From the NCBI GenBank assembly GCA_963728025.1, contig CAVSIF010000003.1, positions 20,596 to 84,595 on the forward strand: a DNA stretch of 64,000 nt. The letters are read 5' to 3'. Under the pieces are notes generated by a model that ran no database searches, was not told the origin of the DNA, and saw only the letters and a program-made list of their open reading frames with translations. Source of the stretch: an uncultured Actinomycetes bacterium. Lineage in GTDB: Bacteria > Actinomycetota > Thermoleophilia > Solirubrobacterales > 70-9. The position numbers and the translations under genes were made by a program. The stretch's first letter is position 1, and every line of letters starts with the position of its first letter. Shown here piece after piece: positions 15,931-47,191 of the stretch.

Positions 15931-15974
15931 CCGCGGCGTTACACCGCGGGCGCGGTGAATAGCATCTCGCGCCC

Positions 15975-18156: not shown

Positions 18157-18157
18157 C

Positions 18158-25049: not shown

Positions 25050-25206
25050 AGTGAAATACCTGCTCGTCCCGCTCGGCATCCTCGCCTTCGTCCTCTTCCT
25101 GCTGGTGCTGGGGGCGATCGGGCTGCTGGTCTCGATGGCGGTGATCGGGGCGGTCGGCCGGGTCTGGCGCTTCCTCAACAGGGGTGGACGCGGGCGGCGC
25201 TCTTGA
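25050..25206 (+). CDS. possible small single-TM protein (only if 1 nt is removed near 25140)
   Basis: GTG...KYLLVPLGILAFVLFLLVLGAIGLLVSMA. Dropping one G of GCGGG gives VIGAVGRVWRFLNRGGRGRRS-stop. As written the frame runs antisense into the next gene. Confidence 0.25.
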
Positions 25207-26215
25207 CCACCTCGAAGGCGCTGCCGGGGATCCGCTTCAGCTGGTTCAGGCTCTCGTCGTCCCAGCGGCGGTCGCTGCTGCCGCTGAAAAACCAGTTCGA
25301 GCCGTTGTCGGCGACGATCAGGCCGTAGCGCTTCATCGCCAGCGCGATCGTGCGCGCGTGGCCGCTGAAGCGGCCGAGGCCGTAGCCGGCCTTGAGCCGC
25401 AGGCGCAGGCCCATCGGCGGAGCGCTGGGGTCGGCGGTGTCGCCGGCGCAGTGGGAGGCAGGGCTGACCCAGGCGTCGCGGCTGCTCTCGAAGGTGACCC
25501 GGATCGCGTGCTCGAGCCGGCCGGCGGCGACTTCGTCGTAGCGGACCAGGCCGGGGAAGATCGGCAGGCCGGCGGCGTCGGCCGAGGTCCAGCCGGCGGG
25601 GCGGAGCGCGGTCGAGCCGAGGTCCCAGGCGACGCCGGAGTCGGCGTTCCAGTGGGGCTGCGGGCGGGGGACGTAGAAAGCGCGGTAGAGCTCGTAGAGA
25701 GTGCAGGTGGAGCGGTCGACCGTGAGCACGTGGCGGTCGCCGTCGCTGCCGTTGCCGCCCTCGATCGGCGCGCCGGCCGGGATCGGGAAGGGGCCGGGGT
25801 CGCTCTCGTCGCCGTAGGCGGTGTAGTTGACCGGGAGCCGGGGCCGGCCGGGGCCGACGACGGCGAAGGGGAAGCCGTAGGGGCGGGGCGAGCCGAAGTC
25901 GGGGTGGAGGTGGTTGCCGCCCTGGGAGTTGATGTAGGCGACGATCGCGGCCGAGCGGGGGTGGCGCGGCGCCTGCGAGATGTCCTGGTTCCAGGCGGCC
26001 TGGTTGGGTAGCGAGGGAGCGCGCGGCGAGAGCGAGGCCGGCGGGTCGGGGAAGGCCTGGCAGGGGCCGAGGTCGGGGTAGGGGCCGAGGAGCGGCAGCG
26101 AACTCGAGCGGAAAGTGTCGCTATAGCCCCAGTTAGTGATCGAGTTCGCGGCGGGAGCGGTGAGGCCGAGGGCCGCGAGCGCGAGCGCGGCGAGGGCGAG
26201 CGCGGCGAGCTTCAC
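25175..26215 (-). CDS. secreted hypothetical protein
   Basis: Signal peptide MKLAALALAALALAALGLTAPA. 346 aa with good coding statistics and no motif I can name. Confidence 0.65.
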   Translation of the reverse strand: MKLAALALAALALAALGLTAPAANSITNWGYSDTFRSSSLPLLGPYPDLGPCQAFPDPPASLSPRAPSLPNQAAWNQDISQAPRHPRSAAIVAYINSQGGNHLHPDFGSPRPYGFPFAVVGPGRPRLPVNYTAYGDESDPGPFPIPAGAPIEGGNGSDGDRHVLTVDRSTCTLYELYRAFYVPRPQPHWNADSGVAWDLGSTALRPAGWTSADAAGLPIFPGLVRYDEVAAGRLEHAIRVTFESSRDAWVSPASHCAGDTADPSAPPMGLRLRLKAGYGLGRFSGHARTIALAMKRYGLIVADNGSNWFFSGSSDRRWDDESLNQLKRIPGSAFEVVKSAARVHPC

Positions 26216-26460
26216 GCCGGCGGCCAGCCCTCGCGCACGGTCAGGCGCCCGACCTCCAGCTCCTCGATCTCGACCCGGCCGAACTTGGCGCGCCTGACCG
26301 CAAGCCGGCCGACGGCGAGCCGGCCGATCGCGAAGCCGCCGACCGCGGCGGCGCCGACGGCGAGGGCGCCGATCGCGATCGCGCCGCGGGCGCTGGCCCC
26401 GGTCGCGGAGGCGGGGCTGGCTTGCGGGCGGGAGTGGGCGGCGCGACGGGACTTGCGCAT
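26212..26460 (-). CDS. small Gly/Ala-repeat protein, translationally coupled to the downstream secreted protein
   Basis: GAIAIGALAVGAAAVGGFAIGRLAVGRLAV then RVEIEELEVGRLTV. Its stop overlaps the next gene's start by 4 nt. Confidence 0.5.
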   Translation of the reverse strand: MRKSRRAAHSRPQASPASATGASARGAIAIGALAVGAAAVGGFAIGRLAVGRLAVRRAKFGRVEIEELEVGRLTVREGWPPA

Positions 26461-26495
26461 CGCGCCAACCGTAGCGCGGCTAGCCTGACGGGCCG

Positions 26496-27212
26496 ATGAG
26501 CGCGGACGAGCGTCCCACCCTGCTGGCGATCCAGCACGTGCCCTGGGAGGGGCCGCACCGGATCCTCGACGCCTGCGGCGCGCTCGAGGTGCACACCGTG
26601 AAACCGCTGGCCGGGCAGCCGCTGCCCGCGCACGAGGAGGTCGCCGGCGCCGTCGTCATGGGCGGCCCGATGAACGTCGACGAGGTCGCGCGCTTCCCGG
26701 CGCTGGCGGCGGAGCGCGAGTGGCTGGCCGAGGCGGTGCGGCGAGAGTTGCCGCTGCTTGGTGTCTGCCTCGGCGCACAGCTGCTGGCGCGGGCGCTCGG
26801 GGCCGAGGTGCGGGCGGGGGAGGGGCCGGAGATCGGCTTCGCCCCGGTCGAGGTCAGCGACCCCGAGGACCCGCTGCTCGGCGGGCTCGCGCCCCGCACC
26901 GAGGTCCTGCACTGGCACGGCGACGTCTTCGAGCTGCCCGACGGAGCGACGCCGCTCGCCTCTTCGGCCCGGACCGAGCACCAGGCCTTCCGCATCGGCA
27001 ATGCCTGGGGCGTGCTCTTCCATCCCGAGGCCGACTTCGCCCTGGTCGAGGCTTGGCTGGTCGTGCCGGAGATGATCGACGACGCGGTCGCGGCGCTCGG
27101 CGACACGGGAACGCACGAGCTGCCGGAGCGGGCCGCGGCGCTGGAGGCGACGCTGATCGAGCGCACCACGCCCGGCTTCGACGCCTTCGCTGAAATCGTC
27201 GCCAGCGGGTAG
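26496..27212 (+). CDS. class I glutamine amidotransferase-like protein
   Basis: Nucleophile motif LLGVCLGAQLLA and His-containing HPEADF. Confidence 0.8.
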   Translation: MSADERPTLLAIQHVPWEGPHRILDACGALEVHTVKPLAGQPLPAHEEVAGAVVMGGPMNVDEVARFPALAAEREWLAEAVRRELPLLGVCLGAQLLARALGAEVRAGEGPEIGFAPVEVSDPEDPLLGGLAPRTEVLHWHGDVFELPDGATPLASSARTEHQAFRIGNAWGVLFHPEADFALVEAWLVVPEMIDDAVAALGDTGTHELPERAAALEATLIERTTPGFDAFAEIVASG

Positions 27213-27222
27213 GAGGGGCGCC

Positions 27223-28177
27223 ATGGACGTCTGCCTGATGATCGAGGGCCAGGAGGACGTGACCTGGGAGGACTGGCGGGCGCTGGCGGCGGCCTGCGAG
27301 GAGCACGGGGTGGGGACGATGTTCCGCTCCGACCACTACCTCTCGGTCGACGACCGGCGCGAGCGCGGCTCGCTCGACGCCTGGACGACGCTGGCGGCAC
27401 TGGCCGCGCTGACGACGCGGCTGCGGCTGGGGACGCTGGTCTCGCCGGCGACCTTCCGCCATCCCGCGGTGCTGGCGAAGTCGGTGGTCACGGTCGACCA
27501 GGTCAGCGGCGGCCGGGTTGAGCTTGGCCTCGGGGCCGGCTGGTGGGAGCGCGAGCACGAGGTCTACGGGATCCCGCTGCCCCCGGTCGGGCAGCGCATG
27601 GACATGCTCGAGGAGCAGCTGCGGATCGTCAGCGCCTACTGGGCCGAGGGCCGGTTCTCGATCGAGGGCGTCTACTACTCGGCGCGCGAGCCTCGACGCG
27701 CTGCCGAAGCCGGTCCAGCAGCCGCGCCCGCCGCTGATCCTCGGTGGCCGGGGCGGCCCGCGCAGCCTCCGCCTCGCCGCTCGCTACGCCGACGAGTACA
27801 ACACTGTGATGGTGACCGCGGAGGAGATCGCCGACCTCCGCGGCCGGCTCGACCAGGCCTGCGAAGCCGAGGACCGCGACCCGGCCACCCTGCCGCTCTC
27901 GATGATGACCGGCTGGCTGGTCGGCGCCGACCGCGAGGAACTGCGCGACCGCGCCGCTCGGCTGTCCGCGTGGAAGGGCCAGGGCGGCGACGGCGACGCC
28001 CTCCTCGCCAACCCGCGCGAGGGCACGATCGCCGGCACTGTCCCCGAGGCCCTCGACCAGCTGCACGAGCTGGAGCGCGCCGGCCTCACTCGCCTCATGG
28101 CCCAGCACCTCCTGCACCGCGACCTCGACGCCGTCGAGCTGCTCGGCCACGACGTAGTCCCCGCCCTCGCCCGCTAA
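27223..28177 (+). CDS. LLM-class (luciferase-like) F420-dependent oxidoreductase; apparent indel near 27681-27691
   Basis: N-terminal FRSDHY...LGTLVSPATFRHP...GRVELGLGAGW. The typical LPKPVQQPRPPLILGGRG and remainder continue in the frame of listed ORF 27518-28177. Confidence 0.8.
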
Positions 28178-28191
28178 ATTGGCTCCAGCGC

Positions 28192-28265
28192 GGTGGCAGT
28201 AGCTCAGTTGGTAGAGCTCCGGCTTGTGGTGCCGGCGGTCGCGGGTTCGAATCCCGTCTGCCACC
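28192..28265 (+). tRNA. tRNA-His (anticodon GTG) with genome-encoded G-1
   Basis: G-1 then acceptor GTGGCAG/CTGCCAC, D arm GCTC-AGTTGGTA-GAGC, anticodon loop TTGTGGT, T arm GCGGG-TTCGAAT-CCCGT, discriminator C. Confidence 0.9.
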
Positions 28266-28386
28266 CCTCTTGAAGTTGCTGCAAGTGGGCGGAAGTGGGA
28301 CTTGGCAAGCTTCAGTGGTCGCCTGCTCGATCCCCGTTGTGGGCAGAAGGAACTAAACCAATACGAGTTAGGTACGCTGCCTGCGC

Positions 28387-31300
28387 GTGGAGGGCGTAGC
28401 GGCGAATCTCACCGATGGCACGGGTGCTGGGGAGGCCCTGAATGACCTTGACGCGGTCGTAAGCGCTGTCGAAGAAAGCCGCGATTCGGCCTTGGAAGCG
28501 ATCAGGCGACTACAGGAGGCGATTGCGGCGGGGGTCCCGGCAGCCGCCGAAGACGTCGGCCTTCTGGAGGCATACGACCAGGCGCTGAGGGACGCCTGGG
28601 CGACGATAGCTCCCGCCGGAGGTGCGGAAGGCGACCTCACCCTCGAGGCGGTGCTGGCTGCCGTCGGTGAGCTGAAGGCACGAGAGCAGCGCGAGCAAGA
28701 GGCCGACTCGCTCTTCGACACCCTCTCTCGATTGGCCGCGTCTCCAGCTGGGGAGGCAGGTTCCCCTCTGCTGGCGGCGCCGAAGCGACGAGCAGCGGAG
28801 CTCTCCGCTTCGGGGGCGCTCGACGATGAGGAGAACGTGCGGGTGGCGCGCGGCCTCGCCGCTCTCGTTCGCCTCAATGAAGCGGGCGAGGGGGACCGGG
28901 ACACACTGGCTGCCGAAGCCATGGAGCTGCTGCCCGTGGATTGCCATGCGGCGGTCGGAGTTGCTGCTTACGGCAATCTTGAGTTCGCGCCGCCAGCCCT
29001 CCCGAGCGAGGCAGGGGAAGAAACCGAGCCTCCTCTTGACGCGGAGTCCGCGGCCGAGGATGACCTCGGCGTGACCGCGGCCGAGGAGAATAAGGACACC
29101 GAGGCCGCTCTCGAAGACGAGAAGGAGGTCGTTGACGACTCGCAGGACTCGGCCGAGGTTTCTGCCGAGCCATCTGACGAGCAGGTCAAGGCGGCGCTGG
29201 GCGGCCTGCTCCGGGAGAGGCGGTTCGGGCTTGCCCGCTGGATCGCCGCGACCTGGTCGTCGCCCGAGGCGCCCGGCCTAGCGAGCGCGCTCGAGGCACT
29301 CGCATACGCGGTGGCGATGCGCAGCTCGACCGGCGAGCCGGCGACCCGCCTCAGGGATCTAATTCAGGCGCTGCCGTCCGACGCCCTGCACGGCAGCAGG
29401 GCGGCGAGCCTGATCGCGCTGACGGCGGGCCTGCGCGGCAACCTGGTCGCGCCCTACTCGGTCAGCGGCAACCTGCTCGGGTCCGTCGCGGCGACCTACT
29501 CGGACCAGCCGGGCCTCGCCGCTCTGATCGAGGGAGTGACCGAAGCCGGACGGCGGGGCGTCTCGGCTCCGGATATGACTGACCAGGTCCAGAGCATTGC
29601 CTCGACCGAAGACAACCTCCAGGCGGTGCAGGAGCGCGCGAAGCAGATGCTGCAGCGGAGCACGATCAAGTACCAGCGGGCCTCCAGGGTATGGCTCAAC
29701 TGGATCGGGCCGGAGGGCATGCTCGGGTCGCTGCTCAACGTGGTGATCGAAAACCGAGTGGATGAGCTCCAGGACGCCGAGCAGTCGGTGCTCGGGTTGC
29801 GCGACGCGAAGACGCTCGAACGCCAGCTCGACGAGACCGCGCGCCGGCTGGCGACGGCGAACCGCCAGCGAAAGATCGTCGAGGCCGCACGCGAAAAGCT
29901 GATCGAACGCGCCGAGGAAAGCCTCGCGATCGTTTCGGAGTGGGTCGATGTCAGTCGAGAACTCGATCGCGTCAAGCGGCAGCAGGCTAACGAGAACTGG
30001 CAGCAGGCTCTGCTCGGGGATTTGCGAACGGTCGCCAGGGACGCGCGCGAGGAAGTGATCTCTACCTGGGAGGAGTGGGCGGGGGGAGATGACCTGATGG
30101 CAGCGGCGGCGACCGGGACCTTGCCGACCATCGGGGAGATCTTCGAGCTTCCTGATCGACGGCAAGCGGCTCGCCAGCGAGGAAGAGGCAATCGACGAGG
30201 TGCTTGGCCTCGACCTCCTGCGAGCCCCCGGCCTCGGCCTCAACCCACGCCTCGAACCGATTGGCGAGCCGACCCTATCCTCGCTGCTCGCCGCCGCTCA
30301 GCCGAGCGACTGGATGAAGGCCTTCGAGATCAGGGTGGGGGAAGCGGACTTCAACGCCGCGGAGCGCATCGTCGAAGTCGTCGGCCGCACCGATCCGGAC
30401 CTAGCAGCGACGCTGGACAAGCAGCGACTCAACCGCCTGACCGAAAAGCGCGACCACCTGATGGCGATGCTCGGGGAGGCGGCCCGCCTGCTCGGCGCCG
30501 CGCGCCGCGAGGGGCGTATCTCCGACTCGGAGAGCCTTGGCCTCAACGGCCGGCTGTCGGCGCTTGAGCTGCGGGAAGGAGAGCAGGGACTCCGCGGCCG
30601 CGACGAAGCGATCCGTAAGTTCCTCGGCGATCTGCGCAGGGCCGAGGAAGAAGGGGAAGAGAGGGCGCGTGCGCAGTATGCCCCCCGTCTGGAGGGCGAG
30701 GCAGAGCTGCAGCCCCATCGCCAGCGGCTGCAAGACCTGCTCGACGGCGGCGAGATCTCGACCCTCGAGGAGCTGGTCCTCGCGATCGAGCGCGGCGACG
30801 AGCTGCCGGAGGAAGGGAAGCTGCTGTTCAGGCAGCTGACCGAGTTCTTCCCCGACGTCGCCAGCGACACCCAGGTCGCCCGGTTTAGCCAGGAGGACGA
30901 AGCTCTGACCGAGGCGATCAGCGGCCGCGGCAGGTTCGGCGCTCTCGACTTCTCCAGCCTTAAGGACGAGGAGGTCGAACCCGTGCTGGCCGCGATCGAG
31001 GCCTGGCGGCGCCTGGAGTGCCTCGAACTGAAGGAAGCCGAAGACGACCTGGCCCGGGTTCTCGACCTGATCGGGCTGACCGTCGAGACGGGGGTTGACG
31101 CGAAGGCATGGAAGCGGGGCCCCGACAAGCGCGGCCGGGGGGAGATCACCGCCAAGCCGCTCGGCAAGGCGCTGGTGCCGGCCTTCGGGTCCGAAACCCA
31201 GGGCGGCCGCTATCGGCTGCTGATGATCTGGGAAAGCATGAGCGACGACGCGATCGCGTCGCTGATCTCCCAGGAAGACGGAGAACAGCCGATCGTCGTC

Positions 31301-33633
31301 ATCTTCTTCGGAAACGCCCTGTCGGCGACGGTCAGGAGAGGGGTCGCCGACCAGCTCCGGCAGCAGCCAAGCCGGCGCGCCGTGGCACTGATCGACGCGC
31401 CCGCCTTTCTCTTCCTTGCTTCTCGAGGAGGTCGCAAACTGGCGACCACGATGCGCATCACGATGCCGTTCAGCGCCGTCAATCCCTACACGCCGTTCGC
31501 GCCAGGCAGCGTCCCGCTGGAGATGTTCTACGGCCGTGGCCGCGAGCTCGCGGACCTGGTCGACCGCAGGGGGACCTCGTTTATCTACGGCGGCCGCCGG
31601 CTCGGTAAGTCCGCGCTACTGCGGGCGGCCGAGCGCAAGTTCCAGGACGAAGCCCCGCGGACGAACACCGCGATCTATGTCGACCTCAAGACCAAGGGCA
31701 TCGGTGAGCGGGAGCCTGCCGAGAAGATCCGCGGTGAGATCGCCAAGGCCCTGAAGGACGCCGGGGTGATGACCCACGGACGAGCCAAGGATCCAAGCTT
31801 CGAGGACATCCGCACCGAGGTAAAGGCCTGGTTCGAGGGCGATGACAAGCGCCGGATCCTGCTGCTGCTGGACGAGTGCGACTCGTTTCTCAACGCCGAC
31901 GCGAAAGCGAACTTCCCCAATGTCACCGAGCTGAAGGCGCTGATGCAGGAAACCGATCAGCGCTTCAAGCTGGTCTTCGCCGGGCTGCATCAGGTGCGTC
32001 GCTTCCAGCGGATGCCGAACCAGCCGCTTGCGCACCTTGGCTATCCGACTCCGGTTGGCCCGCTAAAGCCGCAACCGGCCTATGACCTGATCACGAAACC
32101 GCTCGAGGCGCTGGGCCTGAAGTTCGAGGCATCCGATTTGCCGGTTCGCATTCTCACCGCAACTAACTACCAGCCGAGCCTGATCCAGCTGTTTTGCAGC
32201 GAGTTGGTCGACCACATGCTGGAGAAGGCCTGCGGGCCCGGAACGCCGCCGTATGTGATCACCTCGAGCGACGTTGACGCCGTCTACGGCAACCAGCGTG
32301 TGATCGAAGAGATGCGGACCCGCTTCGGGCTGACCACCCACCTCGACCCGCGCTACCAGGTGATCGCCAACTCGGTCGCCTTTGAAGCTCTTGGCAGCGG
32401 CCTGACGGTCGGGCTCAGCGCCTCCGAGATCCGAGCGATGTGCGATGAGTACTGGCCGGCTGGGTTCGCCAAGACCGACAGCGACGAGTTCCGCGCGCTG
32501 CTCGAAGAGATGGACAGTCTTGGGGTGCTGTTCGAGGACGATCGGGGGCGGTTCATGATGCGCAGCCCGAACGTGCTGCGAATGCTCGGCACCGCGGAAC
32601 AGATCGAGGAGAGCCTCAACGCGTCCAACGAGCTCGACCTCCCGCAGGGTTTCGAGGCGGCCTCGTTCCGCGACCGGCTAGGGAACGACCCCTATCGACG
32701 ACAGCCGTTCACGCACGAACAGGTCGCCGACATCCTCGCCAGTGACGAGGAGGCAGAGGACTCGCTAGTGCGCGTCATCGTAGGCAGCGCCGCCACGAGC
32801 ATCGGCGACGCCAGGGCCTGCCTGCGGGAGCTGTTCGAGGACGGCTCCGGCCGCTACAGCTTCAAGGACGACTCCGGGCAGGACTTCAAACGCCTGCGGG
32901 CCCGTTTCAAGAAGCCCCTGCAGAAGCGCCGGGCTGTGGCTTACGAGCTGAGGCCAGGCCCTCCGGGCGAGCATTTGGCTGGCATCCGCTCGGTGGCCGA
33001 GAAGCTGGCCGAGCCCAACCTCAACGCTACGCTCGCCTTCGTGCTCGGCGACGGGGCGCTCGCGACCTGGAAGGCCTTGGTCGTGCCTGACGACAAGGGC
33101 GGGGCCGGTTATGCGGCGGCATTCGAGGACCAGATCCAGCTGATCGAGCTGAAGCGGTGGAGCAAGGCCGGCCTGCGGGCCTGGGCGCAGGCTCAGGACG
33201 TCGAACTCTTCTTCAGCCAGGACCAGACTCTGAGCGAGCTGATGCGGGTGACCGGCGGCTGGCCGATCCTCGTCAATCGGGTCGTGGACGCCTATCGACA
33301 GGACCACGACTGGAAGGGGGCGATCAAGTCTCTGGAGCAGTGGCTCGACAGCGGCGAGGGGGCGGCCGAGCTGTGCGCGGCGATCGGCTCGAAGCCGACG
33401 AGGACCTGGCGCGGGCCTGGAACCTGTTCATCATCTACAAGGATCCGATCAGCCTCGAGGAATTCCAGGGCCTTGCGGAGGACGAGGACATCGCGGACGC
33501 CGGCCGGGTCGCCGAGCTGCTGCGCTCGATGCAGGTGCTGGAGCTCGACTCGAAAGGCCGCTACATGGTCGAGAAGACGGCGGCTGGTGCCTGGCGGAAG
33601 CGCGTTTCCGCCGAGGTCCATGCAGCATCCTGA
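28387..33633 (+). CDS. giant (~1,750 aa) protein: long acidic/coiled-coil N-terminal region plus AAA+/STAND-like P-loop NTPase; two apparent indels (~30148 and ~33388)
   Basis: Three listed ORFs (28387-, 30200-, 33157-33633) join without stops, and third-position G/C switches frame at the joins. FYGRGRELADLV followed by Walker A GGRRLGKS (~31589-31612) and Walker B LLLLDECD (~31856-31882). Confidence 0.7.
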
Positions 33634-34785
33634 GTGGCGATTGGGGGGCCTAATCGCTTCGTCCGGGCGCTGGCGGCCGAGCTTGAGGGAGGACGCTCGA
33701 CGATCGTACTGCTCCCGGCGTCCGGTTTTCCCGACGGCCTACAGGCCGCCGTGCGCGAGGCGCTGCCCAAAATCGAGGTCAACCGGCTGCGCCTGAAGGA
33801 GATACTGGAGGACCGGGGCCGGATCGTCGACGTCCTCCACCGCCGGCTCGCCCTCAGCACGCCGCCCCGTGGCGACCAGGTCGAAGTCAGTTCCTTCGCC
33901 CGCCACCCCGAGCTGCGGCGACGCCTGATCTGGGTCGACGGCCGATCGGCATCCGCGGCCCAGGTCGATTCCTGGGTCGATTTCCTGGAGCAGTACACCG
34001 GGGTCGCCAACGAGCTTCCGATCCACGGCCGGACTGTGTTCGCGACCCTCTGCGACGGTCGCCACGCCCACCGCATCCCCGACTCGATCATGCTGCTCGA
34101 CAAGCGCTGGTGGTGGGGGGTGGTGACTCCCCTCGACACCGAGGTCTTCGTCGCCGAGCTGGCTAGGAATCGAAGTTGGGAGCCGGCCTTCGTCGAGCCG
34201 GTGACGGAGGTCGCCGGTTTTGACCTCACCCTTGCCGGAATCTTGGTCCAAGAGTGGGACGGTGCCCTCGCTAGTCTGCGGCCGCTACTGAGCGAGTATG
34301 ACCTCGACCGAGAGGGCGGCGATTGGCGATGGTCCCCGAGAGCTTCGCCCCGCGCTCAGCCGCCGGCCGACTCGGTCGCGGCCTGGAGCGCGGGAGTCGT
34401 AAACGCTTGGGGGGACCGGGATCCGCGAGTCCATGCCTGCCACGCGGCGGCCGAGAGCCCGAATGCGCTTCAGCACCTGATATGGCTCGGCCAGGTTCGC
34501 AGCTTGATGCCGCGGATCGAGATCGAACGGCAGGCCCTTGCGGAATGGGTCTACGAACGCCGGAACCTACTGCCGCAGGGCTGGCGAGGCAAGGAGATCC
34601 GTAGCCTCGAGGTCGTCGACCTCGCCACCATTTTTCGGTTCCCCTCATTTCAGAAACACCAAAGCCGCGCCCAACTCGCGCGATGGCTCCATCGCACTCG
34701 CAATGCGATCGCCCATCTTGAGATCCTCAACGTAAGCGAGCTTGAACAGGCGAGACAGATGCTTCGGCGAGGAGCTACCCATTAA
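33634..34785 (+). CDS. 383-aa partner protein with C-terminal HEPN-like Rx4H motif
   Basis: GTG start immediately after the giant gene's TGA. C-terminal WLHRTRNAIAHLE (R356-N-A-I-A-H361, nt 34699-34716). Confidence 0.6.
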   Translation: MAIGGPNRFVRALAAELEGGRSTIVLLPASGFPDGLQAAVREALPKIEVNRLRLKEILEDRGRIVDVLHRRLALSTPPRGDQVEVSSFARHPELRRRLIWVDGRSASAAQVDSWVDFLEQYTGVANELPIHGRTVFATLCDGRHAHRIPDSIMLLDKRWWWGVVTPLDTEVFVAELARNRSWEPAFVEPVTEVAGFDLTLAGILVQEWDGALASLRPLLSEYDLDREGGDWRWSPRASPRAQPPADSVAAWSAGVVNAWGDRDPRVHACHAAAESPNALQHLIWLGQVRSLMPRIEIERQALAEWVYERRNLLPQGWRGKEIRSLEVVDLATIFRFPSFQKHQSRAQLARWLHRTRNAIAHLEILNVSELEQARQMLRRGATH

Positions 34786-34870: not shown

Positions 34871-35665
34871 TCAGCCGGACGCCGGCGGTGCCGACATCAG
34901 CAGGCGGTACTCGTAGATCGGTTCGTAGCTCATGGCCGCGTAGATCGGCTCGCCCATGGGGGAGGCCTGGAGGGAGGCGATGTCGGCGCCTAGGTTGAAG
35001 CCGGCGTTGGTGGCGGCAGTGGTGGTGGCGCGGCCGAGGCCCTTGCCCCTTGCCTGCTCGAGGCTGCCGACCCAGTAGATGCCGGCGACTCCGTCGGTGA
35101 CGATGGTCATCGCGATGCTGACCGGGGTGTCGTCGAGGTAGGCGATGAAGGCGGCCACGTTGTCGGCGAGGAGGCCGGCGCCGTCGGTGTAGAAGTCGAA
35201 GACCTCGGGTGGGAAGCCGATGCTGGTGTAGGAGGCGGCGGCGATGCGCCAGTAGCTCTCGGCCTCCTCGGCGCGGCTGAGCCGGCGCAGCTCGGCTCCG
35301 GGCGGAAGCGGTGGCGCCTCGACCGGGGCCTGCAGCACCATCTCCGGCATCGAGTGGACGCACTGCAGCCCCGCCGCCTCGGCCGCGGCGGCGAGGTCGC
35401 GGTCCTCGGGCACCCCGTCTCGCACCCAGACGCTGAAGCCGCGGCCGCGGGCGCCGAAGAAGGCGCGCGCGGCCGCGATGAACCGCGCCGGATCGACTCC
35501 GTCATCGCGGCGGAAGGCCGCGTTGGAGATGGCCGGGTGGTCGGGACTGCCGGCGCCGAACAGCCAGCCGCTGCCGGCCTCGACGGTGGCCTCGGGGTCG
35601 AGTTCGAACAGCTGCCGCGAGCTGTCGATCAGGTTGAGATGGGCGCGGCGGCTGAGCTCGGACAC
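34871..35665 (-). CDS. GNAT-family N-acetyltransferase
   Basis: Acetyl-CoA motif QARGKGLGRATT. Start taken at GTG (VSELSRRAHLNLID). The longer ORF extension is Ser/Arg-rich and implausible. Confidence 0.7.
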   Translation of the reverse strand: MSELSRRAHLNLIDSSRQLFELDPEATVEAGSGWLFGAGSPDHPAISNAAFRRDDGVDPARFIAAARAFFGARGRGFSVWVRDGVPEDRDLAAAAEAAGLQCVHSMPEMVLQAPVEAPPLPPGAELRRLSRAEEAESYWRIAAASYTSIGFPPEVFDFYTDGAGLLADNVAAFIAYLDDTPVSIAMTIVTDGVAGIYWVGSLEQARGKGLGRATTTAATNAGFNLGADIASLQASPMGEPIYAAMSYEPIYEYRLLMSAPPASG

Positions 35666-35684
35666 GGTCCCATACCATCGCACC

Positions 35685-35957
35685 GTGGAGGTTCCGGAGC
35701 AGCATCGCGAGTTCGCCGCAGCGGTCGCGGCGTCGCGCCTGCAGGATCCGATGCCGACGTTCGAGGCGCTGTCGCGGGCGACCGGGGTGCCCGCCGACGA
35801 CCTGGTCAACCACGCGCTCGTGCGCTGGGTCTCCGAGGGGTCAGAGGCGCTGATGCTGGTCGAGCCGGCGGTGCTCCGCAAGCTCGCCGAGGCTCGGGCG
35901 CGCGAGGATTGGGATGCCGTCGCTGGCCTGATCGACTGGCTCGAGGCAGGCAGCTAG
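35685..35957 (+). CDS. small hypothetical protein, divergent from the GNAT gene
   Basis: VEVPEQHREF...MPTFEALSRATGVPADDLVNHALVRWVSEG (HTH-like). Good third-position G/C only from ~35685 onward. Confidence 0.45.
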   Translation: MEVPEQHREFAAAVAASRLQDPMPTFEALSRATGVPADDLVNHALVRWVSEGSEALMLVEPAVLRKLAEARAREDWDAVAGLIDWLEAGS

Positions 35958-36015: not shown

Positions 36016-39000
36016 TCAGCCAAACGGGGTGCCCAGCGCCAGAACGCTCGAGCGTTCTTCGGGGTCGGTGATGCCGTAGAGGTCGAGGACGATCTCATCG
36101 AGCTGGTCGACGAAACCCTCGGTTCGGCGGGCGCCGAGGGAGCGATCTGCCGCCGATAGGCCCTGATGTGACTGGGATACCGATCCTTCCAGGTCGGAGG
36201 CGAGACGGACGAGGGTGTCGTGGCGGGAGCGATCTTCGCCGTCGTCGAAGTCGATGCGCCGGATCGGGAGGTGTTGGATCGAGTTGTCGAAGGCCTCCCA
36301 CATGTTTTCTCCGGTCAGCTTGGCCAAGCCGCGAAAGCGAAAGGTGAGCAACTTCGAGTTGATCAGCGCCAAGAGGTAACGGGGATCCTCCTCGACGTCA
36401 TCCTTTACGAACGCGACCGTGGTGTCGGTGAGGGAGAGCCAGTCGAATTCGTCATCGAGGACGAACCGAAGGTGCCCCGCGCGATAGGGACAGACCAGGC
36501 GTGGTCCTCCGTACAGCTCCTTGCTGAGCGGCCACGTGTAGCGCCACCAGTCGCAGTCCCCTCTTTTGTAGGCGGCGCGGGATTCCAGCTTTTCGCGGTT
36601 CGATGGAAGCTCGAGGTAGGTCCGCACCGTTTTCGGCAGGGCCCCATAGGAGGCAACGTCCTCGAGGTACAGCAGCGAGTGTTCGCTGGGTGCCAGGTAG
36701 AAGGATGAGATCTCCGAGTTGCGGGCCCGGCGTTTGAGCAGGTTCGCCGGGAGGCCATGCTCGGCGATCTGAGCCGCGGAGACGCCGAACACGCTGTTGG
36801 CGCCCGTCTGCATGCCCTGACCGAGGTCGCAGAGGGAGTCCAGGTCCTCGCCGGCTGAGTCGATGCGCCTGTAGAGGGCATCTTCGTGAGGGTTTGGGAA
36901 GTGCCAGGCGCCCGGGCCAAGGGCAACCCGTCGCTCGAACACCTCAAACGGCGCGGAGCGGGTACGTGCTCCCTCGATGACCTCGCCGGACGCGAGTTTG
37001 CCGGTGCGCAACCGCGCCACGTCCACCGTCGTCTCCTCGCCTCCCGAGGAAGTGTCGAAAACCGCGATCGCGGTGGCGATGCTGGCATCGGCGAAAACCA
37101 TGAAGCCGTCGAAGTCGGTGAGCTCGAGTAGCCGGGCGTGGTCGCCCAGCCAGCCCCTCAGCTTCTGCGCGCGGTCCGCTGCCAGGAATGCCCGGGAGAC
37201 GATGAATCCGAGCCGCTCGTTGGCCAGCTCGACTGCCTTACGGAGGAAGAAGTAGTAGATGTCGCCCTTGTCAAGCCAAACGTCGCCGTAGGCCTGCTTC
37301 AGGTAGGCGGGCACGGCATGCCCCGCGCCATAAACGGTGTCGATGGAAAAGTACGGCGGGTTCCCAACGACCACGGAGAAGCCGCCTGCTTTGAGCACCT
37401 TGCCAAATCCCTCGCGGTCGGACTCCCACTTGAAGGGTCGAAGGCGGTGCTCCTCGAAATCATCGAGGGAGCCGGCGAGCTGTTCCTGGCCGTAGAAATC
37501 GGTGCTGACCAATGAGTTGCCGGTTCGGATGTTGCTTGCCAGCGACGGCAGCACCGCCCCAGAGATCTGCATCTGGGTTCGAACGAACTCCGGGGCTTCG
37601 GACTCCAGGGATTTCAGATAGAGGCTCATCGTCGTCACCTCCACCGCCGCCGGGTCGACGTCTACTCCAAAGATATGACGCTGTAGTACGGCCGCGCGCG
37701 CATCGGCAGTGAGCCTGCGGATGTCGTCGGCGTCGGCGTAGTGAGATTTCCGTTCAACGCTTGGATGGGCCGTGTAGTACGCCTCGTAATGAGCAATGAG
37801 GCGTGCGTACGCCCCCAGCAGAAATGACCCAGAGCCGCAGGCGGGGTCGAGAACGCGGAACTCGCGAAGCGCTTTCGGCGCTTTGCCTGAGATCAGTGGA
37901 TCGATCGTTCTGCGAACGACGTCGTCAACCACCCACTGGGGGGTGTAGTAGACGCCTCCGGCCTTGCGAACCTCGGGCTTGAGCTCAATGCTCACCGAGC
38001 GGTCGTCGCCGAGGGTGACGACGCTGGCCAGGGCGCGCTCGTAGATGCTGCCGAGGATCTCGACCCCGAGAACATCGAACCGGTACGGCGACCAGGGGGT
38101 GTACAGGCCACGGATCACTCGCGAGAAGACCGCATCGGGGATCTCCAGCCCGTCGGCGAAGCTGGTGTCCATCAGCCCACCGTTGTAGTGCGTCCGCAGT
38201 GGCTCGAGCGATCGGATGAACTCCGCGTAGACGCCCTCGGTTTCGAGCAGGGGGCGCAGCACCTCTTCTGGCTCCAGGCGCCGGTCCTCGCATACCCGGA
38301 TGAAGACAAGGCGATCCAGGGTCAGCTGCGTCGCTTCGTTGAGCTGCCAGACATCGAGCTCCTCGTTGTCGGCGGCGAACCCCTTCGCGACGGCGGTGCG
38401 CCAGCGCGCCAGGTCCGCGAGGAAAGCCTTGTCCACCGGAAGCTGGCCGGGCCGGCCCTCCAGCTGCTCCATGTAGCGAGTCAGCGAGCCCGACGCGACA
38501 GCCTCTCGCGAAAACGTGTCCCAGAGGAGGTCCCAGTGAGCGACGTAATCACGAAAGTTGAGCCGAAACTCGGGAATCAGCCCGGTCAGCGGCTCGTCGA
38601 GCACCGGTCGGTAGCGACAGTCGAAGACCAAGAATTGCTCGAAGTCGGTGAGGATGACAATCGGGGTGTTGGCCGACCAGCCATATGACTTGACTTGAAA
38701 GACCGGCCGCGGGCTGGTGATGTCCACGGATGGGCGCTTTGCCTCGATGAAGAACTTATGGTCGCCGTTGACGCGGAACGAGTAGTCGGGCCGCCTCACC
38801 CCGATGCTCTCCGCGGCGTCGCCCTGTTCAGTGGGGCCACTGGCGCCACGGAGCGAGTGCTCCAGGATCACGTCCGCGAACGGCCCGCGCTTCTCCTCGT
38901 CCGCCACGTCCCAGCCAAGCGCGGCGAAGAGTGGGTCGATGAATCGCTGTCGGCAACTGGTCTCATCGAACTCCGCGGACTTGTAGTAGTCCAGGGCCTC

Positions 39001-39072
39001 GGCGAACTGGTCGCAGAGATCGCCGACGGCCGCGAGTCCGGTTTTCCTGTCGACGGCTCGTACCGGCGTCAT
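36016..39072 (-). CDS. fused type IIG restriction-modification enzyme (N-terminal PD-(D/E)xK nuclease, gamma-class N6-adenine methyltransferase, C-terminal specificity region)
   Basis: 1,018-aa ORF with nuclease motif RPDYSF...FFIEAKRP, SAM motif I VLDPACGSGSFLLGA and motif IV VVGNPPY. Lower third-position G/C than neighbours. Confidence 0.85.
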   Translation of the reverse strand: MTPVRAVDRKTGLAAVGDLCDQFAEALDYYKSAEFDETSCRQRFIDPLFAALGWDVADEEKRGPFADVILEHSLRGASGPTEQGDAAESIGVRRPDYSFRVNGDHKFFIEAKRPSVDITSPRPVFQVKSYGWSANTPIVILTDFEQFLVFDCRYRPVLDEPLTGLIPEFRLNFRDYVAHWDLLWDTFSREAVASGSLTRYMEQLEGRPGQLPVDKAFLADLARWRTAVAKGFAADNEELDVWQLNEATQLTLDRLVFIRVCEDRRLEPEEVLRPLLETEGVYAEFIRSLEPLRTHYNGGLMDTSFADGLEIPDAVFSRVIRGLYTPWSPYRFDVLGVEILGSIYERALASVVTLGDDRSVSIELKPEVRKAGGVYYTPQWVVDDVVRRTIDPLISGKAPKALREFRVLDPACGSGSFLLGAYARLIAHYEAYYTAHPSVERKSHYADADDIRRLTADARAAVLQRHIFGVDVDPAAVEVTTMSLYLKSLESEAPEFVRTQMQISGAVLPSLASNIRTGNSLVSTDFYGQEQLAGSLDDFEEHRLRPFKWESDREGFGKVLKAGGFSVVVGNPPYFSIDTVYGAGHAVPAYLKQAYGDVWLDKGDIYYFFLRKAVELANERLGFIVSRAFLAADRAQKLRGWLGDHARLLELTDFDGFMVFADASIATAIAVFDTSSGGEETTVDVARLRTGKLASGEVIEGARTRSAPFEVFERRVALGPGAWHFPNPHEDALYRRIDSAGEDLDSLCDLGQGMQTGANSVFGVSAAQIAEHGLPANLLKRRARNSEISSFYLAPSEHSLLYLEDVASYGALPKTVRTYLELPSNREKLESRAAYKRGDCDWWRYTWPLSKELYGGPRLVCPYRAGHLRFVLDDEFDWLSLTDTTVAFVKDDVEEDPRYLLALINSKLLTFRFRGLAKLTGENMWEAFDNSIQHLPIRRIDFDDGEDRSRHDTLVRLASDLEGSVSQSHQGLSAADRSLGARRTEGFVDQLDEIVLDLYGITDPEERSSVLALGTPFG

Positions 39073-39457: not shown

Positions 39458-40738
39458 ATGACAAAACACCCGGCGCTTCGCGCCTTCCGCGGGCGCCTGG
39501 CGCCGGCGCTGATCCTCCTGGCCCTGCTCGCCCTCGCCGCTCCGGCGGGCGCCCTGGCCAAGTCGGCGTCCTCTGTCCTCACCTTCAAGACGATGCAGGT
39601 CGGCTCCCCGGCCAACCCGGCGGTCGGCATCGTCCCCTTCACCGACGCGATCTACCGCACCTGCGCGGAAGCGCCGCAGCCGCAGAAGCCGCAGGACCCC
39701 TCCTGCCAGGAAGTCGGCTCGGTCGGCTACGGCTACGGGATCGGCAAGCTCGAGGTGACGGTCGGCCAGTACGTTAAGTTCCTCAACACGGTCGACCCCG
39801 CCGGCCGCAACAGGTACAAGCTCTACAGCGAAAACGAGAGCGGGGCGGCCTGGCCCCGGTTCGGACAGATCGACTACTCGGCGAAGGCGCCCGCCGGCCG
39901 CCACTACTCGGCGGCCGCGCCGGAGTGGCTCGACAAGCCCTACGGCTTTGCCAACTTCCTGCGCTCGGCCCGCTTCGTCAACTCCCTCTACAACGGCAAG
40001 CTGCTCTCCAAGCAGAGCGGGATGGAAGGCCCCTACAGCTACACGACCTACCGCGTGCGCCTCTCGCGCAACACCGAGCGGGGGATGTACGACATGCGGA
40101 AGCCGAAGACGACGCGCACGGCTAAAACCGGCTTCGTCGTCCCCAGCCAGAACGAGTGGATCAAGGCCGCTTACTACGACCCGATGGGCGGCGGCACCTA
40201 CTCCTACTGGCAGTACCCGACCAACCCGGGTGACTTCGGCGACGAAGGCCAGGCGGCTCCCAGGGAAGCCACTCTCGATCCCAAGACCGGCGACGTCACC
40301 AACGCCTCGACCCAGCCGCTGGCGATCTACCACTCGCCGAAAGTCGAAGTGGCGCCGACCTGGTGCCCGTCGAACCAGTCGGCCGCGGCCTGCGAAACCG
40401 TCAACCCGTTCGGCCTCCCGGCCGAAAAGTACGAGCAGGGCTACGCGGGCAGCCTGGGCACGGTCGGGCAGGCGGGGACTCTCGGCCCCTGGGGCACGCT
40501 CGACCAGGGCGGCAACGCGGTCGAGTGGACGGACACGATCACCGCGCCCCCGTTCGGGGTCAAAGGCAAACGCGTCTGGCGACGGCTGCACGGCGGCATC
40601 GCCAACGCGCCCGTCTACCAGCTCTGGCTCTCGGCGGTTGGCCTGCAGCCGCAGGACAACACCTTCTTCACCGCGACCTACCCGTGGCTCGGGATCCGGG
40701 TCGGGGTGGTCGGCGACCTGAAGCTCGGCAAGGGCTGA
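39458..40738 (+). CDS. secreted FGE-sulfatase (SUMF1)-like domain protein
   Basis: Signal peptide. Divergent FGE-type blocks LEVTVGQYVKFLN, SQNEWIKAAYY, GGNAVEWTD and RRLHGG. Same strand as, and two genes upstream of, a Cys-type sulfatase. Confidence 0.6.
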   Translation: MTKHPALRAFRGRLAPALILLALLALAAPAGALAKSASSVLTFKTMQVGSPANPAVGIVPFTDAIYRTCAEAPQPQKPQDPSCQEVGSVGYGYGIGKLEVTVGQYVKFLNTVDPAGRNRYKLYSENESGAAWPRFGQIDYSAKAPAGRHYSAAAPEWLDKPYGFANFLRSARFVNSLYNGKLLSKQSGMEGPYSYTTYRVRLSRNTERGMYDMRKPKTTRTAKTGFVVPSQNEWIKAAYYDPMGGGTYSYWQYPTNPGDFGDEGQAAPREATLDPKTGDVTNASTQPLAIYHSPKVEVAPTWCPSNQSAAACETVNPFGLPAEKYEQGYAGSLGTVGQAGTLGPWGTLDQGGNAVEWTDTITAPPFGVKGKRVWRRLHGGIANAPVYQLWLSAVGLQPQDNTFFTATYPWLGIRVGVVGDLKLGKG

Positions 40739-40775
40739 GTTGGGCGTCCGTGGGGCGGGCTAGGTTTGCCGCCCC

Positions 40776-42197
40776 ATGGACCGCCCGGCACCGCGCTCCC
40801 GCCTCGTCCGCATTTTCGTCGCGCTGACCGCGGCGGTTGTTGTGTTGGCGCTGCCGATGGGGGCGCTCGCGGCGCCGAAGCAGGGGCAGCCCAAGCCGGG
40901 GACGCTGACCCAGCTCGCCGGCAAGCGCGGTTGCCTAGTCGACCGCTCGAAGCCCGCCAAAGGCTGCGGCGCGGCGCGGGCGCTGAAGGGGCCGGGGCCG
41001 TTCATGGGCTCGCGGGCGATCACGGTCAGCCCCGACGGCAGGCACGTCTACGTCGCCGCCTCGAAGAGCGACGCGATCGCGATCTTCTCGCGTGACCGCC
41101 AGACCGGCGTCCTCGCCCAGGCGCCGAAGGCGATGGGCTGTATTGCCGCCAAAGGCGCCGCCGGTTGCGCTCCCGCGATCGGCCTCGACGAACCGAACTC
41201 GGTCGCGATCAGCGCAAACGGGCGCAACCTCTACGCGACCTCGCGCGCCGGCAACTCGCTCTCGAGCTTCGTCCGCAACCCGAAAACCGGGGCGCTGCGG
41301 CAGCTGCCACCGCCACTGGCCGGCTGCATCTCCGGGCTGCCGCTTCCCGGCTGCGCGTCCGGCCTCGCCCTCGTCGCTCCCGACGTCGTCGTCGTCAGCC
41401 CCGACGGCAACAACGTCTACGTCGGCTCCTTCTTCGGCAACGCCGTCGCCGCCTTCGCCCGCAACCCGGCGACCGGAGCGCTGGCGCAGCTCGCCGGCAG
41501 CGCCGCCTGCGTCGCCGAGGCGACCACCGGCTGTGCCACCGGGATCGCGCTGAAAGCGGTCGAGGGCCTGGCGATCAGCGGCAACGGGGCCAGCGTCTAC
41601 GCCGCCACCGCGCTCTCCAACGCGGTGGTGACGCTGTCGCGCAACCCCAGCACCGGCGCCCTCGCCCAGGCGAGCGACGGCAGCGGCTGCATCGTCGAGA
41701 GCGCGCTCACCGGCTGCACCCTGGGCCGGGAGCTGAGCGGCGCCAACGCGGTCGCGGTCAGCCCCGACGGCGACGGGGTCTACGCCACCTCGCTGTTCAG
41801 CAACAGCGTCACCTCCTTCGCCCGCAACGCTTCGAGCGGGGTGCTGACCCAGCGGGAAGGGACCGGCGGCTGCCTGATCTACCTGCGCTCCGCCGGCTGC
41901 TCCTTCGGCCGCGCCCTCGTCGCCCCCGAGGGCCTGGCGCTCTCGCCCGATGGGAAGAACGTCTACATCGCCGCCTTCAAGAGCGGCGCGATCGCCGTGC
42001 TCAACCGCGGCTCGGCCGGCTCGGTCGCGCAGAAGCCGGGCGCCGCCGGCTGCGTCGCGGCGCGCTCCCTCTCCGGCTGCACGGTCGGCCGCGCGTTGAA
42101 GGGCGTCAGCTCTGTCGCGCTCAGCCCCGACGGCCGCCATCTCTACTCGACCGCGTTCGAAAGCGACGCGATCGACGTCTTCAGGAGGAACAAGTGA
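40776..42197 (+). CDS. secreted seven-bladed beta-propeller repeat protein (lactonase/YVTN-like)
   Basis: Signal peptide. Seven ~57-aa repeats of the form GC-x7-10-GC ... SPDG-x-x-VY ... F-x-R-x-x-x-G-x-L. Confidence 0.75.
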   Translation: MDRPAPRSRLVRIFVALTAAVVVLALPMGALAAPKQGQPKPGTLTQLAGKRGCLVDRSKPAKGCGAARALKGPGPFMGSRAITVSPDGRHVYVAASKSDAIAIFSRDRQTGVLAQAPKAMGCIAAKGAAGCAPAIGLDEPNSVAISANGRNLYATSRAGNSLSSFVRNPKTGALRQLPPPLAGCISGLPLPGCASGLALVAPDVVVVSPDGNNVYVGSFFGNAVAAFARNPATGALAQLAGSAACVAEATTGCATGIALKAVEGLAISGNGASVYAATALSNAVVTLSRNPSTGALAQASDGSGCIVESALTGCTLGRELSGANAVAVSPDGDGVYATSLFSNSVTSFARNASSGVLTQREGTGGCLIYLRSAGCSFGRALVAPEGLALSPDGKNVYIAAFKSGAIAVLNRGSAGSVAQKPGAAGCVAARSLSGCTVGRALKGVSSVALSPDGRHLYSTAFESDAIDVFRRNK

Positions 42198-47066: not shown

Positions 47067-47191
47067 CCTGCTCCTGCTCTGGTTGGGGGAAGCGGTGAAT
47101 CTAACGACCAAGTTTCGCCGGCGCTTCGCAGGGAATGGGAACTCCACGTTCTTCACGAAGGAAGGCCGGCTAGGCGTCTAGGGAGGTTTCA

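Follow-up and report, generated by a model that had tools for sequence, protein, structure and literature searches.

Comparison with described conflict systems

Candidate systems that couple a nucleoside triphosphatase (NTPase) to a nuclease are numerous. ATPases of the ORC/Cdc6 type are described as a mainstay of conflict systems (PMC10853773), and BREX variants often carry an effector joined to an inactive module (PMC12839542). Here, we analyzed a stretch of 64,000 nucleotides (the window in what follows) from contig CAVSIF010000003.1 of an uncultured Solirubrobacterales bacterium, which carries at positions 28387-34785 two genes encoding a 1,749-residue NTPase, termed the core, and a small protein, termed D, that combines an inactive AAA+-like domain with a C-terminal HEPN-like domain. 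Sequence comparison indicates that the pair is strictly conserved and most likely forms a well-supported candidate family of anti-phage defence. We consider it rather probable that the window holds one copy of an unnamed conflict module of two genes, which is widespread and would act against phages or mobile genetic elements (MGEs).

An earlier inspection of the letters and ORF translations of the same DNA (the sequence-only reading) could not match the pair to a named system, and our searches agree: Pfam, NCBIfam, PADLOC 2.0, the PDB and the literature gave no family-level placement. NCBIfam had no match for the big protein, for which PADLOC 2.0 returned only PDC-S01, with an E-value of 0.0017 over 72 residues around the P-loop; neither D nor three distant homologues of the core matched any PADLOC 2.0 model. 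Searches of PDB sequences with profiles of the core and of D yielded low-complexity noise only. The homologues appear in RefSeq as 'ATP-binding protein', 'AAA family ATPase' or 'hypothetical protein', and the literature searched offered analogies only and no named system for the pair.

Similar to BrxC/PglY of BREX, the core is large (>1,200 residues) and combines an AAA+ ATPase of the ORC/Cdc6 type with a winged helix and extended helical stretches. As with BrxB, the small partner of the ATPase has an inactive STAND/AAA+-like fold, and the fusion of the inactive domain of D to an HEPN-like domain recalls the fusions of inactive module and effector in BREX variants. They differ in that the conserved module here lacks a methyltransferase, that the ATPase lies in mid-protein after ~1,000 residues, compared to an N-terminal position in BREX, and that the effector here would be an RNase-type HEPN domain. 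In addition, Pfam and PADLOC detected no DUF499/BrxC, PglZ, PglX/BrxX or BrxL in the pair or its homologues, and none of them is conserved in the neighbourhoods.

With Avs and STAND NTPases, the core shares the 'hhGRxxE' motif before the P-loop, and some of its homologues match AAA_16 or nSTAND1; in both cases a switch NTPase would govern a nuclease effector, and both are found in defence islands and prophages. However, Avs has its effector fused at the N-terminus and a C-terminal TPR-like array as sensor, whereas the putative effector here is encoded by a gene of its own and brings along an inactive AAA+ domain, and the C-terminus of the core is apparently a degenerate P-loop-like module with a winged helix. 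Moreover, no PADLOC model of Avs matched, and the best structural matches of the core are Orc1/Cdc6 proteins. The latter share with the core an AAA+ base, lid and winged helix over ~410 columns, and, similar to ORC/Cdc6, the predicted assembly would mix active and inactive AAA+ modules. Nevertheless, the identity to Orc1/Cdc6 is just 13-15%, the core is longer by ~1,000 residues at the N-terminus and by ~350 at the C-terminus, and it stands in no origin or replication context and is paired with nucleases.

D resembles the HEPN RNases (Swt1-like, Cas13, Csm6, RNase L, PrrC/RloC) in an R-N-x-x-x-H motif near the C-terminus of a helical domain and in its predicted control by a nucleotide-dependent partner, but differs in its fusion to an inactive AAA+ domain and in exceeding the threshold of no curated HEPN family. 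Likenesses to pPIWI-RE occur elsewhere in the family, where a pPIWI_RE RNaseH domain is fused to the core in some members and a DinG-like helicase, as in the pPIWI-RE triads, belongs to an actinobacterial operon type; the window copy, by contrast, has no pPIWI-RE, restriction endonuclease (REase) or DinG component. The description of pPIWI-RE (Burroughs et al. 2013, PMC3702460) does not mention an ATPase fusion, and we found none described in the literature searched; PMC7641849, followed as a further lead on pPIWI-RE, proved to be a false text match to 'Piwi-related'.

Architecture of the core NTPase and of D

The big gene spans three listed open reading frames (ORFs) on the + strand, 28387-30567 (frame 1), 30200-33796 (frame 2) and 33157-33633 (frame 1), and is read in frame 1 to ~30150, in frame 2 to ~33387 and again in frame 1 to the TGA at 33631-33633. 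The first two ORFs have Arg/Pro-rich out-of-frame ends, and sensible protein resumes in the next ORF in the other frame. Joining the pieces, as proposed by the sequence-only reading for a protein of ~1,750 residues, at ~30151 and ~33387 gives 1,749 residues with zero internal stops. A search of 5.8 billion proteins with the joined protein recovered six intact homologues of 1,745-1,761 residues and 60-87% identity; since these span 99-100% of the joined protein, the join is correct. The two genes comprise the following features:

28387-33633, + strand: big gene, encoding the 1,749-residue core NTPase after frame correction (intact homologues P0001-P0006)
28387-29196, + strand: variable acidic N-terminal region (residues 1-270; isoelectric point (pI) 4.05)
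29197-31075, + strand: conserved, mainly helical region without a recognizable domain (residues ~271-897; homologue alignment and Pfam)
31076-31456, + strand: α/β pre-domain (residues ~898-1024; AlphaFold2 secondary structure and invariant columns)
31502-32584, + strand: Orc1/Cdc6-like AAA+ ATPase with lid and winged helix (residues ~1040-1400; AAA_22 and Foldseek)
32672-33630, + strand: C-terminal region (residues ~1430-1749; AlphaFold2 model and Foldseek alignments to two-ring AAA+ proteins)
33620-34785, + strand: small gene D from its ancestral ATG at 33620 (inactive AAA+-like N-terminal domain and C-terminal HEPN-like domain)
34699-34716, + strand: RNAIAH, an Rx4H motif of HEPN type (R356, N357 and H361 of D; 23-28 residues from the C-terminal end)

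The first ~1,000 residues of the core, described earlier as acidic, Ala/Glu/Leu/Arg-rich and free of enzyme motifs, have a pI of 4.5 and are indeed rich in Ala, Leu, Glu and Arg, and no Pfam domain was matched in them. Residues 200-270 constitute a low-complexity linker rich in Glu, Ala and Asp, and the tblastn matches of distant homologues mostly begin at residues ~200-330. Homologues of 2,000-2,080 residues, considered as possible fusions of the core with D, carry their extra length at the N-terminus and have an unchanged C-terminus, which rules the fusion out. In one member of the alignment, a core homologue read stop-to-stop, sigma-70 regions 1.2, 2, 3 and 4 lie in the same frame; they probably derive from an upstream sigma-factor gene and not from a fusion. 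The helical region is followed by the pre-domain, which contains the invariant residues G935-S936, R984 and D1004.

The succession of NTPase motifs noted from the letters was recovered in full, with the pre-P-loop motif (FYGR), FYGRGRELADLV, at residue 1048 (nucleotides 31526-31561), the Walker A motif GGRRLGKS at residue 1069 (31589-31612; its Lys is K1075) and the Walker B motif LLLLDECD at residue 1159 (31859-31882; D1163 and E1164). G1069, G1070, R1071, G1074, K1075, D1163 and E1164 are invariant in 18 homologues. Further downstream, a FAGLH strand precedes the invariant R1206 (31976-32002), which by its position in the sequence would be compatible with box VII (arginine finger/sensor). 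About 583 residues extend from Walker B to the C-terminus, in agreement with the ~600-residue region previously placed after the NTPase.

Pfam analysis of the big protein gave AAA_22 only, at a marginal 27.8 bits compared to a cut-off of 27. Among 23 diverse homologues, AAA_22 was matched by 13 (best E-value 4e-9) and the STAND profiles AAA_16 and nSTAND1 by five and one, respectively. Both STAND profiles are also present in homologue P0018. In the big protein of the window, Pfam found no STAND profile (AAA_16, NACHT, NB-ARC or nSTAND), and it detected neither a repeat sensor (TPR, WD40 or LRR) nor a fused effector domain in the core.

The AlphaFold2 model of the core covers residues 820-1668, with the last 81 residues outside the model, and has a predicted local distance difference test score (pLDDT) of 79 and a predicted template modelling score (pTM) of 0.52. 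Its top matches in Foldseek are the archaeal Orc1/Cdc6 proteins 2qby_A, 2v1u_A and 1fnn_A, with E-values of ~1e-8 to 1e-7 and a TM(target) of 0.43-0.44 over ~410 columns, followed by eukaryotic ORC/Cdc6 and, over 630-875 columns, two-ring AAA+ proteins. These fold matches uphold the earlier assignment of the NTPase to the ORC/Cdc6-STAND type. In the model, the predicted domain order is the pre-domain, the active AAA+ domain with lid and winged helix, a degenerate P-loop-like module and a helical/winged-helix end. Residues ~1430-1749 apparently form this second α/β P-loop-like module, in which the sequence GSAATSIG lacks the Lys, and the core ends in helices and a probable terminal winged helix.

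D has ~388 residues in homologues. Its conserved start is the ATG at 33620 (MQHPEWRLGGPNRF...), which overlaps the stop of the big gene by 14 nucleotides. The GTG at 33634, from which 383 residues are read, is a fallback start produced by the third of the indels described below, and its use loses an N-terminal W-x-L that is at least 90% conserved among 116 family members. The sequence-only reading had the small gene abut the preceding stop (TGA-GTG); the GTG does follow the TGA directly, but the conserved start is the overlapping ATG.

The AlphaFold2 model of D has a pLDDT of 84 and a pTM of 0.77. A Foldseek search with the whole chain returned RFC small subunits, ORC, Vps4, FtsH and RuvB with E-values of ~1e-4. 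Because these are AAA+ proteins, we assign an AAA+ fold to the N-terminal ~220 residues, and because the P-loop position reads LPASGFPDG, with Walker A missing, this domain is considered inactive. From residue 268 the model is all-helical, with RNAIAH at the end of helix 343-360; the RNxxAH motif reported near the end of the small gene is present, and its R is invariant. Across 116 diverse members of the D family, D168 and R356 are the only invariant residues, and N357 and H361 are at least 90% conserved. Among the 22 D-like ORFs of the genome loci, 21 show the pattern R[NH]x[LI][AS]H at 20-37 residues from the C-terminal end, and the sole ORF without it (L010) is truncated by a contig end; variants such as RRGMAH are found in other D-like proteins.

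Pfam HEPN_Swt1 gave sub-threshold matches in 15 of the 116 members (best E-value 0.0012), compared to at most one member for any other family, and further sub-threshold HEPN matches were to pEK499_p136 and Apea (E-values 0.1-0.24). When the profile of the C-terminal domain was compared with the PDB, the top matches were Cas13a on the RNxxxH motif of HEPN2, at a non-significant E-value of 0.15. Together with the invariant R-N-x-x-x-H, these matches support the HEPN call of the sequence-only reading, and the C-terminal domain of D is likely, by its sequence features, a Swt1-like HEPN domain. An inactive AAA+ domain fused to an HEPN-like domain was not found described in the literature searched.

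Distribution, partner exchange and genomic context

In a scan of one genome per GTDB species (185,579 species in the collection), at least 600 stretches were matched, of which 593 encode a relative of the core. The core thereby occurs in at least 593 species representatives, which belong to Actinomycetota, Cyanobacteriota, Pseudomonadota, Acidobacteriota, Gemmatimonadota, Rhodothermota and other phyla. The D family forms 1,246 clusters at 50% identity in a library of 1.84 billion proteins, nearly all of them standalone proteins of ~360-410 residues. Core and D are adjacent in 31 of 31 independent loci, with junctions that overlap or nearly abut. D lies directly downstream of the core in 18/18 species loci of the HEPN operon type, and a D-like gene does so in all six IMG/VR contigs found via the core; in the reverse direction, the core is directly upstream in each of the seven metagenome loci that were found via D and have upstream sequence. 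The co-occurrence of the two genes, implied by the proposal of a two-gene system, is borne out by these loci. The HEPN type is found in Solirubrobacterales, Acidimicrobiia, Cyanobacteriota, Deltaproteobacteria, Azonexus, Longimicrobium, Acidobacteriota and Neomegalonema.

Sorting of 80 loci of the species scan by operon type revealed two replacements of the HEPN partner, both in Actinomycetota. The helicase type (~40 loci; Streptomyces, Amycolatopsis, Micromonospora and relatives) has a helicase of ~1,950-2,000 residues, which is a fusion of DEDDh exonuclease, DinG-like and RecQ/DpdF-like parts, and a protein of ~780 residues upstream of the core, as exemplified by a Kutzneria locus (L017:288-6266 and L017:6263-8479). 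The ~780-residue protein, which stands between helicase and core, is conserved and matched nothing in Pfam or PADLOC. In the MBL type (~19 loci; Nonomuraea, Actinomadura and relatives), the place of the HEPN partner is taken by a ~700-residue nuclease that consists of an N-terminal coiled-coil and an RNase J/CPSF-like MBL/β-CASP/RMMBL nuclease, for example L020:14572-16617 in Nonomuraea. A neighbour-joining tree of the core resolves the MBL type and the helicase type as two monophyletic clades nested within the HEPN type, which is itself a paraphyletic grade, and the partner type follows the core phylogeny. A shared adaptor domain was sought by hhalign of D against the ~780-residue and MBL-nuclease partners, which showed no homology; nor is the ~780-residue partner homologous to the pPIWI-RE-bearing N-terminus of the fusion protein on IMG/VR contig L097 described below.

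The family also occurs on mobile elements. PLSDB contains 25 plasmids with a relative of the core, and Salinibacter ruber pSR118 carries an intact pair (WP_162892365.1 and WP_162892366.1). A plasmid of Azospirillum oryzae (NZ_CP054617.1, 1486-11256) encodes a 3,256-residue core with an N-terminal pPIWI_RE RNaseH domain, and the same fusion, of 3,181 residues, was found on an IMG/VR contig (L097:1176-10718). RefSeq labels such fusions 'RNaseH domain-containing protein', and the plasmid relatives of Microvirga and Bradyrhizobium are known here by that annotation alone. On the Salinibacter and Azospirillum plasmids, too, core and partner are adjacent. The downstream D-like partner in Azospirillum has 525 residues and an additional C-terminal kinase-like tail with a P-loop (GPTGAGKS). 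The sequenced phage genomes of INPHARED gave no match.

Among 128 ORFs from the neighbourhoods of 19 HEPN-type loci, for which the PADLOC matches were pooled, strong matches were to DruE/DruF/DruL, PsyrT/PsyrA, DrmMI/type IIG, AbiEii and mad2. In a Smithella metagenome-assembled genome (MAG; L066:15323-23850), Druantia-like DruL/DruF/DruE lie immediately downstream of the pair, and in an Azonexus MAG (L073:2-7937), PsyrT/PsyrA-like genes and a type IIG/DrmMI-like gene lie immediately upstream, the PADLOC matches being assigned by ORF size in both. On IMG/VR contigs, the neighbours of the pair are integrase, CI/CII-like repressors, Mu Gam, invertase and tail proteins, that is, prophage lysogeny modules. 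The pair hence co-localizes with defence genes and with prophage integrase and repressor genes. In locus L001, an integrase adjoins the pair.

The window has a GC content of ~70%, and the pair lies in a segment with the following neighbours:

28193-28267, + strand: tRNA-His (GTG), directly 5' of the pair (ARAGORN)
34871-35881, - strand: GNAT acetyltransferase gene, between the pair and the restriction-modification gene
36016-39072, - strand: Eco57I/MmeI-type IIG restriction-modification gene, intact, 1,018 residues (context only)

The flanks 25187-28162 and 39566-42233, on both sides of the pair segment, are syntenic with related genomes, whereas the segment between them varies from genome to genome (the window compared to L002 and L009). 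In the window it contains tRNA-His, the pair, the GNAT gene and the type IIG gene, the latter two filling the stretch from the pair to conserved FGE-sulfatase/lactonase/sulfatase genes. In L002 and L001 the pair is likewise preceded by a tRNA region, which the tRNA-His of the window matches, and the tRNA gene marks the insertion point of the island, in common with related Solirubrobacterales loci; a second copy of the tRNA-His 3' end, sought as the attachment (att) repeat bounding the island, was not found. The sequence-only reading had placed the pair next to a type IIG gene and downstream of tRNA-His; both are present, but the GNAT gene separates the restriction-modification gene from the pair. 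In the closest metagenomic relatives, a gene for a 972-residue Mrr_cat-NACHT protein of nuclease-STAND defence type (L002:3075-5993 and L003:2351-5269), together with four metabolic or regulatory genes, lies between a luciferase-like monooxygenase (LLM) gene and tRNA-His, and this ~6.5-kb block is absent from the window.

Integrity of the window copy and interpretation of the module

DNA alignment to three loci with intact genes (L002, L004 and L001) mapped the frame breaks of the pair to three indels:

30151, + strand: indel 1, one extra base, GCTT[C]CTG, compared to intact homologues
33387-33388, + strand: indel 2, one base missing, ATCGG^CTCGAA, where homologues carry A
33648-33649, + strand: indel 3, one base missing after a G run, TTGGGGGG^CC

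The two breaks counted earlier were confirmed and lie at ~30151 and ~33387, but their number was too low, as a third 1-nucleotide indel is present at ~33648. It cuts the ancestral ATG of D from the rest of the gene, such that the reading runs out of frame after ten codons. Piece C of the big gene and gene D share one frame in the window, and a single protein with an in-frame stop was considered; the homologues have two overlapping genes in different frames. Programmed frameshifting is ruled out, as homologues are uninterrupted at all three indel sites.

Frame breaks are also seen elsewhere in the window. The LLM gene (27223-28177), upstream of tRNA-His, has an extra base at ~27691 (GAG[C]CTCGACG), at which its Bac_luciferase profile is split over two frames; a listed ORF of 377 residues (27223-28356) that crosses the tRNA gene is an out-of-frame artefact. 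A probable break in an unrelated gene lies at ~17179 (ORFs 15963-18242 and 16975-18153), where the coding signal changes frame mid-ORF and the site reads GAGGCTCGAC, and another at ~48100-48250 (ORF 47174-48457), where the Peripla_BP_6 match ends at profile position 248 of 343.

The sequence-only reading had itself named decay of the genes as one of the points on which it could fail. If the three indels were real, they would inactivate both genes and the window copy would be a decayed pseudogene pair, which is unlikely. It is true that three indels fall in 6.4 kb compared to about two or three candidates in the remaining ~57 kb, that just one of these three indels coincides with a long homopolymer, and that the third deletes the nearly invariant W-x-L of D. 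Decay is opposed, however, by the zero stops in 1,749 + 383 frame-corrected codons and by the substitutions on the window branch (124 in the big gene and 27 in D, polarized with L001), which give a ratio of non-synonymous to synonymous rates (dN/dS) of 0.07 for the big gene (102 synonymous, 22 non-synonymous) and 0.06 for D. These values are as low as or lower than those of the intact L002 lineage (0.10 and 0.08), and there has been no spell of relaxed selection. The unrelated LLM gene next door likewise carries a 1-nucleotide indel, and other genes look broken too. Moreover, CTCGA follows immediately 3' of the sites 33387 and 27691 and of the candidate 17179, a post hoc observation that hints at a systematic, possibly methylation-linked, basecalling error, and the long contigs that supplied the closest relatives with DNA belong to 'MFD' MAG assemblies. 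On this evidence the three indels are quite probably errors of assembly or basecalling rather than real mutations, and because they are most likely such errors, the window copy is probably functional; its frame breaks should not count as gene decay in annotation.

Other accounts accept intact genes and give them a different task. The module could serve its carrier element, as a factor of replication initiation, partition or transposition targeting (TnsC/MuB/IstB-like) or as an HEPN-toxin addiction module, and this fits its presence on plasmids, in prophages and beside integrases or transposases, the transposition ATPases within AAA_22 and the ORC/Cdc6 clade (established knowledge; PMC10853773) and the HEPN toxins established in toxin-antitoxin pairs. 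Nevertheless, no transposase, replication or partition gene is conserved beside the pair, whose flanks differ nearly everywhere and whose typical neighbours are defence systems; the partner swaps and the pPIWI-RE fusion suit an effector role better than replication, and an antitoxin of 1,750-2,100 residues would be without precedent, which makes a service to the carrier improbable. A host housekeeping complex for repair, replication restart or RNA turnover is more improbable still: the DinG-like/RecQ-like helicase and DEDDh exonuclease of the Streptomyces-type operons also work in repair, but such a role is hard to reconcile with the patchy spread over at least 593 matched stretches in the collection of 185,579 species, the non-syntenic contexts, the occurrence on plasmids and prophages and the variable island position at a tRNA gene.

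Several points weigh against the reading of the pair as an unnamed defence module. The defence role, the RNase activity and the physical interaction of the pair are computational predictions. The tally of defence neighbours is an aggregate over 128 ORFs without a matched control, and speaks for presence near the pair rather than for enrichment. The domain arrangement of the core is uncertain at a pTM of 0.52, none of the 116 members of D exceeds the threshold of a curated HEPN family, and the Foldseek list of D is a whole-chain result dominated by the AAA+ domain, which limits what it says of an HEPN fold at the C-terminus. The family may already be listed in a catalogue newer than PADLOC 2.0 (2023) or in the 589-clade STAND survey (PMC13581612). 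Finally, the indels may be genuine mutations that inactivated the genes very recently.

For the pair as a conflict module, we propose that the large protein would serve as a switch or scaffold ATPase, in which a variable acidic N-terminus and a helical region of ~600 residues are combined with one active AAA+ domain. The inactive AAA+ domain of D might dock on the AAA+ modules of the core, in a way that would resemble the packing of ORC and clamp-loader subunits and the BrxC/BrxB pair of BREX, where an active ATPase meets an inactive STAND protein (PMC12839542). A putative invader cue, perhaps sensed by the N-terminal or winged-helix regions of the core, would alter the nucleotide state or the oligomerization. 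In a next step, two HEPN domains could come together to form a composite Rx4H active site that cleaves RNA, and this cleavage would arrest the growth of the infected cell, in line with the abortive-infection logic suggested by the sequence-only reading. In the sister clades the same core would drive a β-CASP nuclease or a DEDDh-DinG-RecQ helicase-nuclease, and in another variant it is fused to pPIWI-RE.

In a broader proposal, which we put forward tentatively, these forms would make up one modular immune family, in which a giant core with an Orc1/Cdc6-like AAA+ domain and an apparent degenerate P-loop-like module recruits interchangeable nucleic-acid effectors. Its ancestral and most widespread form would be the inactive AAA+-HEPN partner, from which the β-CASP, the DEDDh-DinG-RecQ and the pPIWI-RE fusion forms would be derived.

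If confirmed as defence, the pair would represent a widespread family, present in at least 593 species, that goes unrecognized by the annotation libraries searched. It would couple an ATP switch to an RNase in an ORC/clamp-loader-like manner, in which an active AAA+ module is joined in cis by a second one that is apparently inactive, and another inactive AAA+-like module, which bears the HEPN domain, is supplied in trans. The partner swaps on one core (HEPN, β-CASP, DinG-RecQ-DEDDh and the pPIWI-RE fusion) would then provide a comparative system for the control of effectors by sensors. Should the modular-family proposal hold true, bacteria would use ORC-like heteromeric AAA+ assemblies as immune switches.

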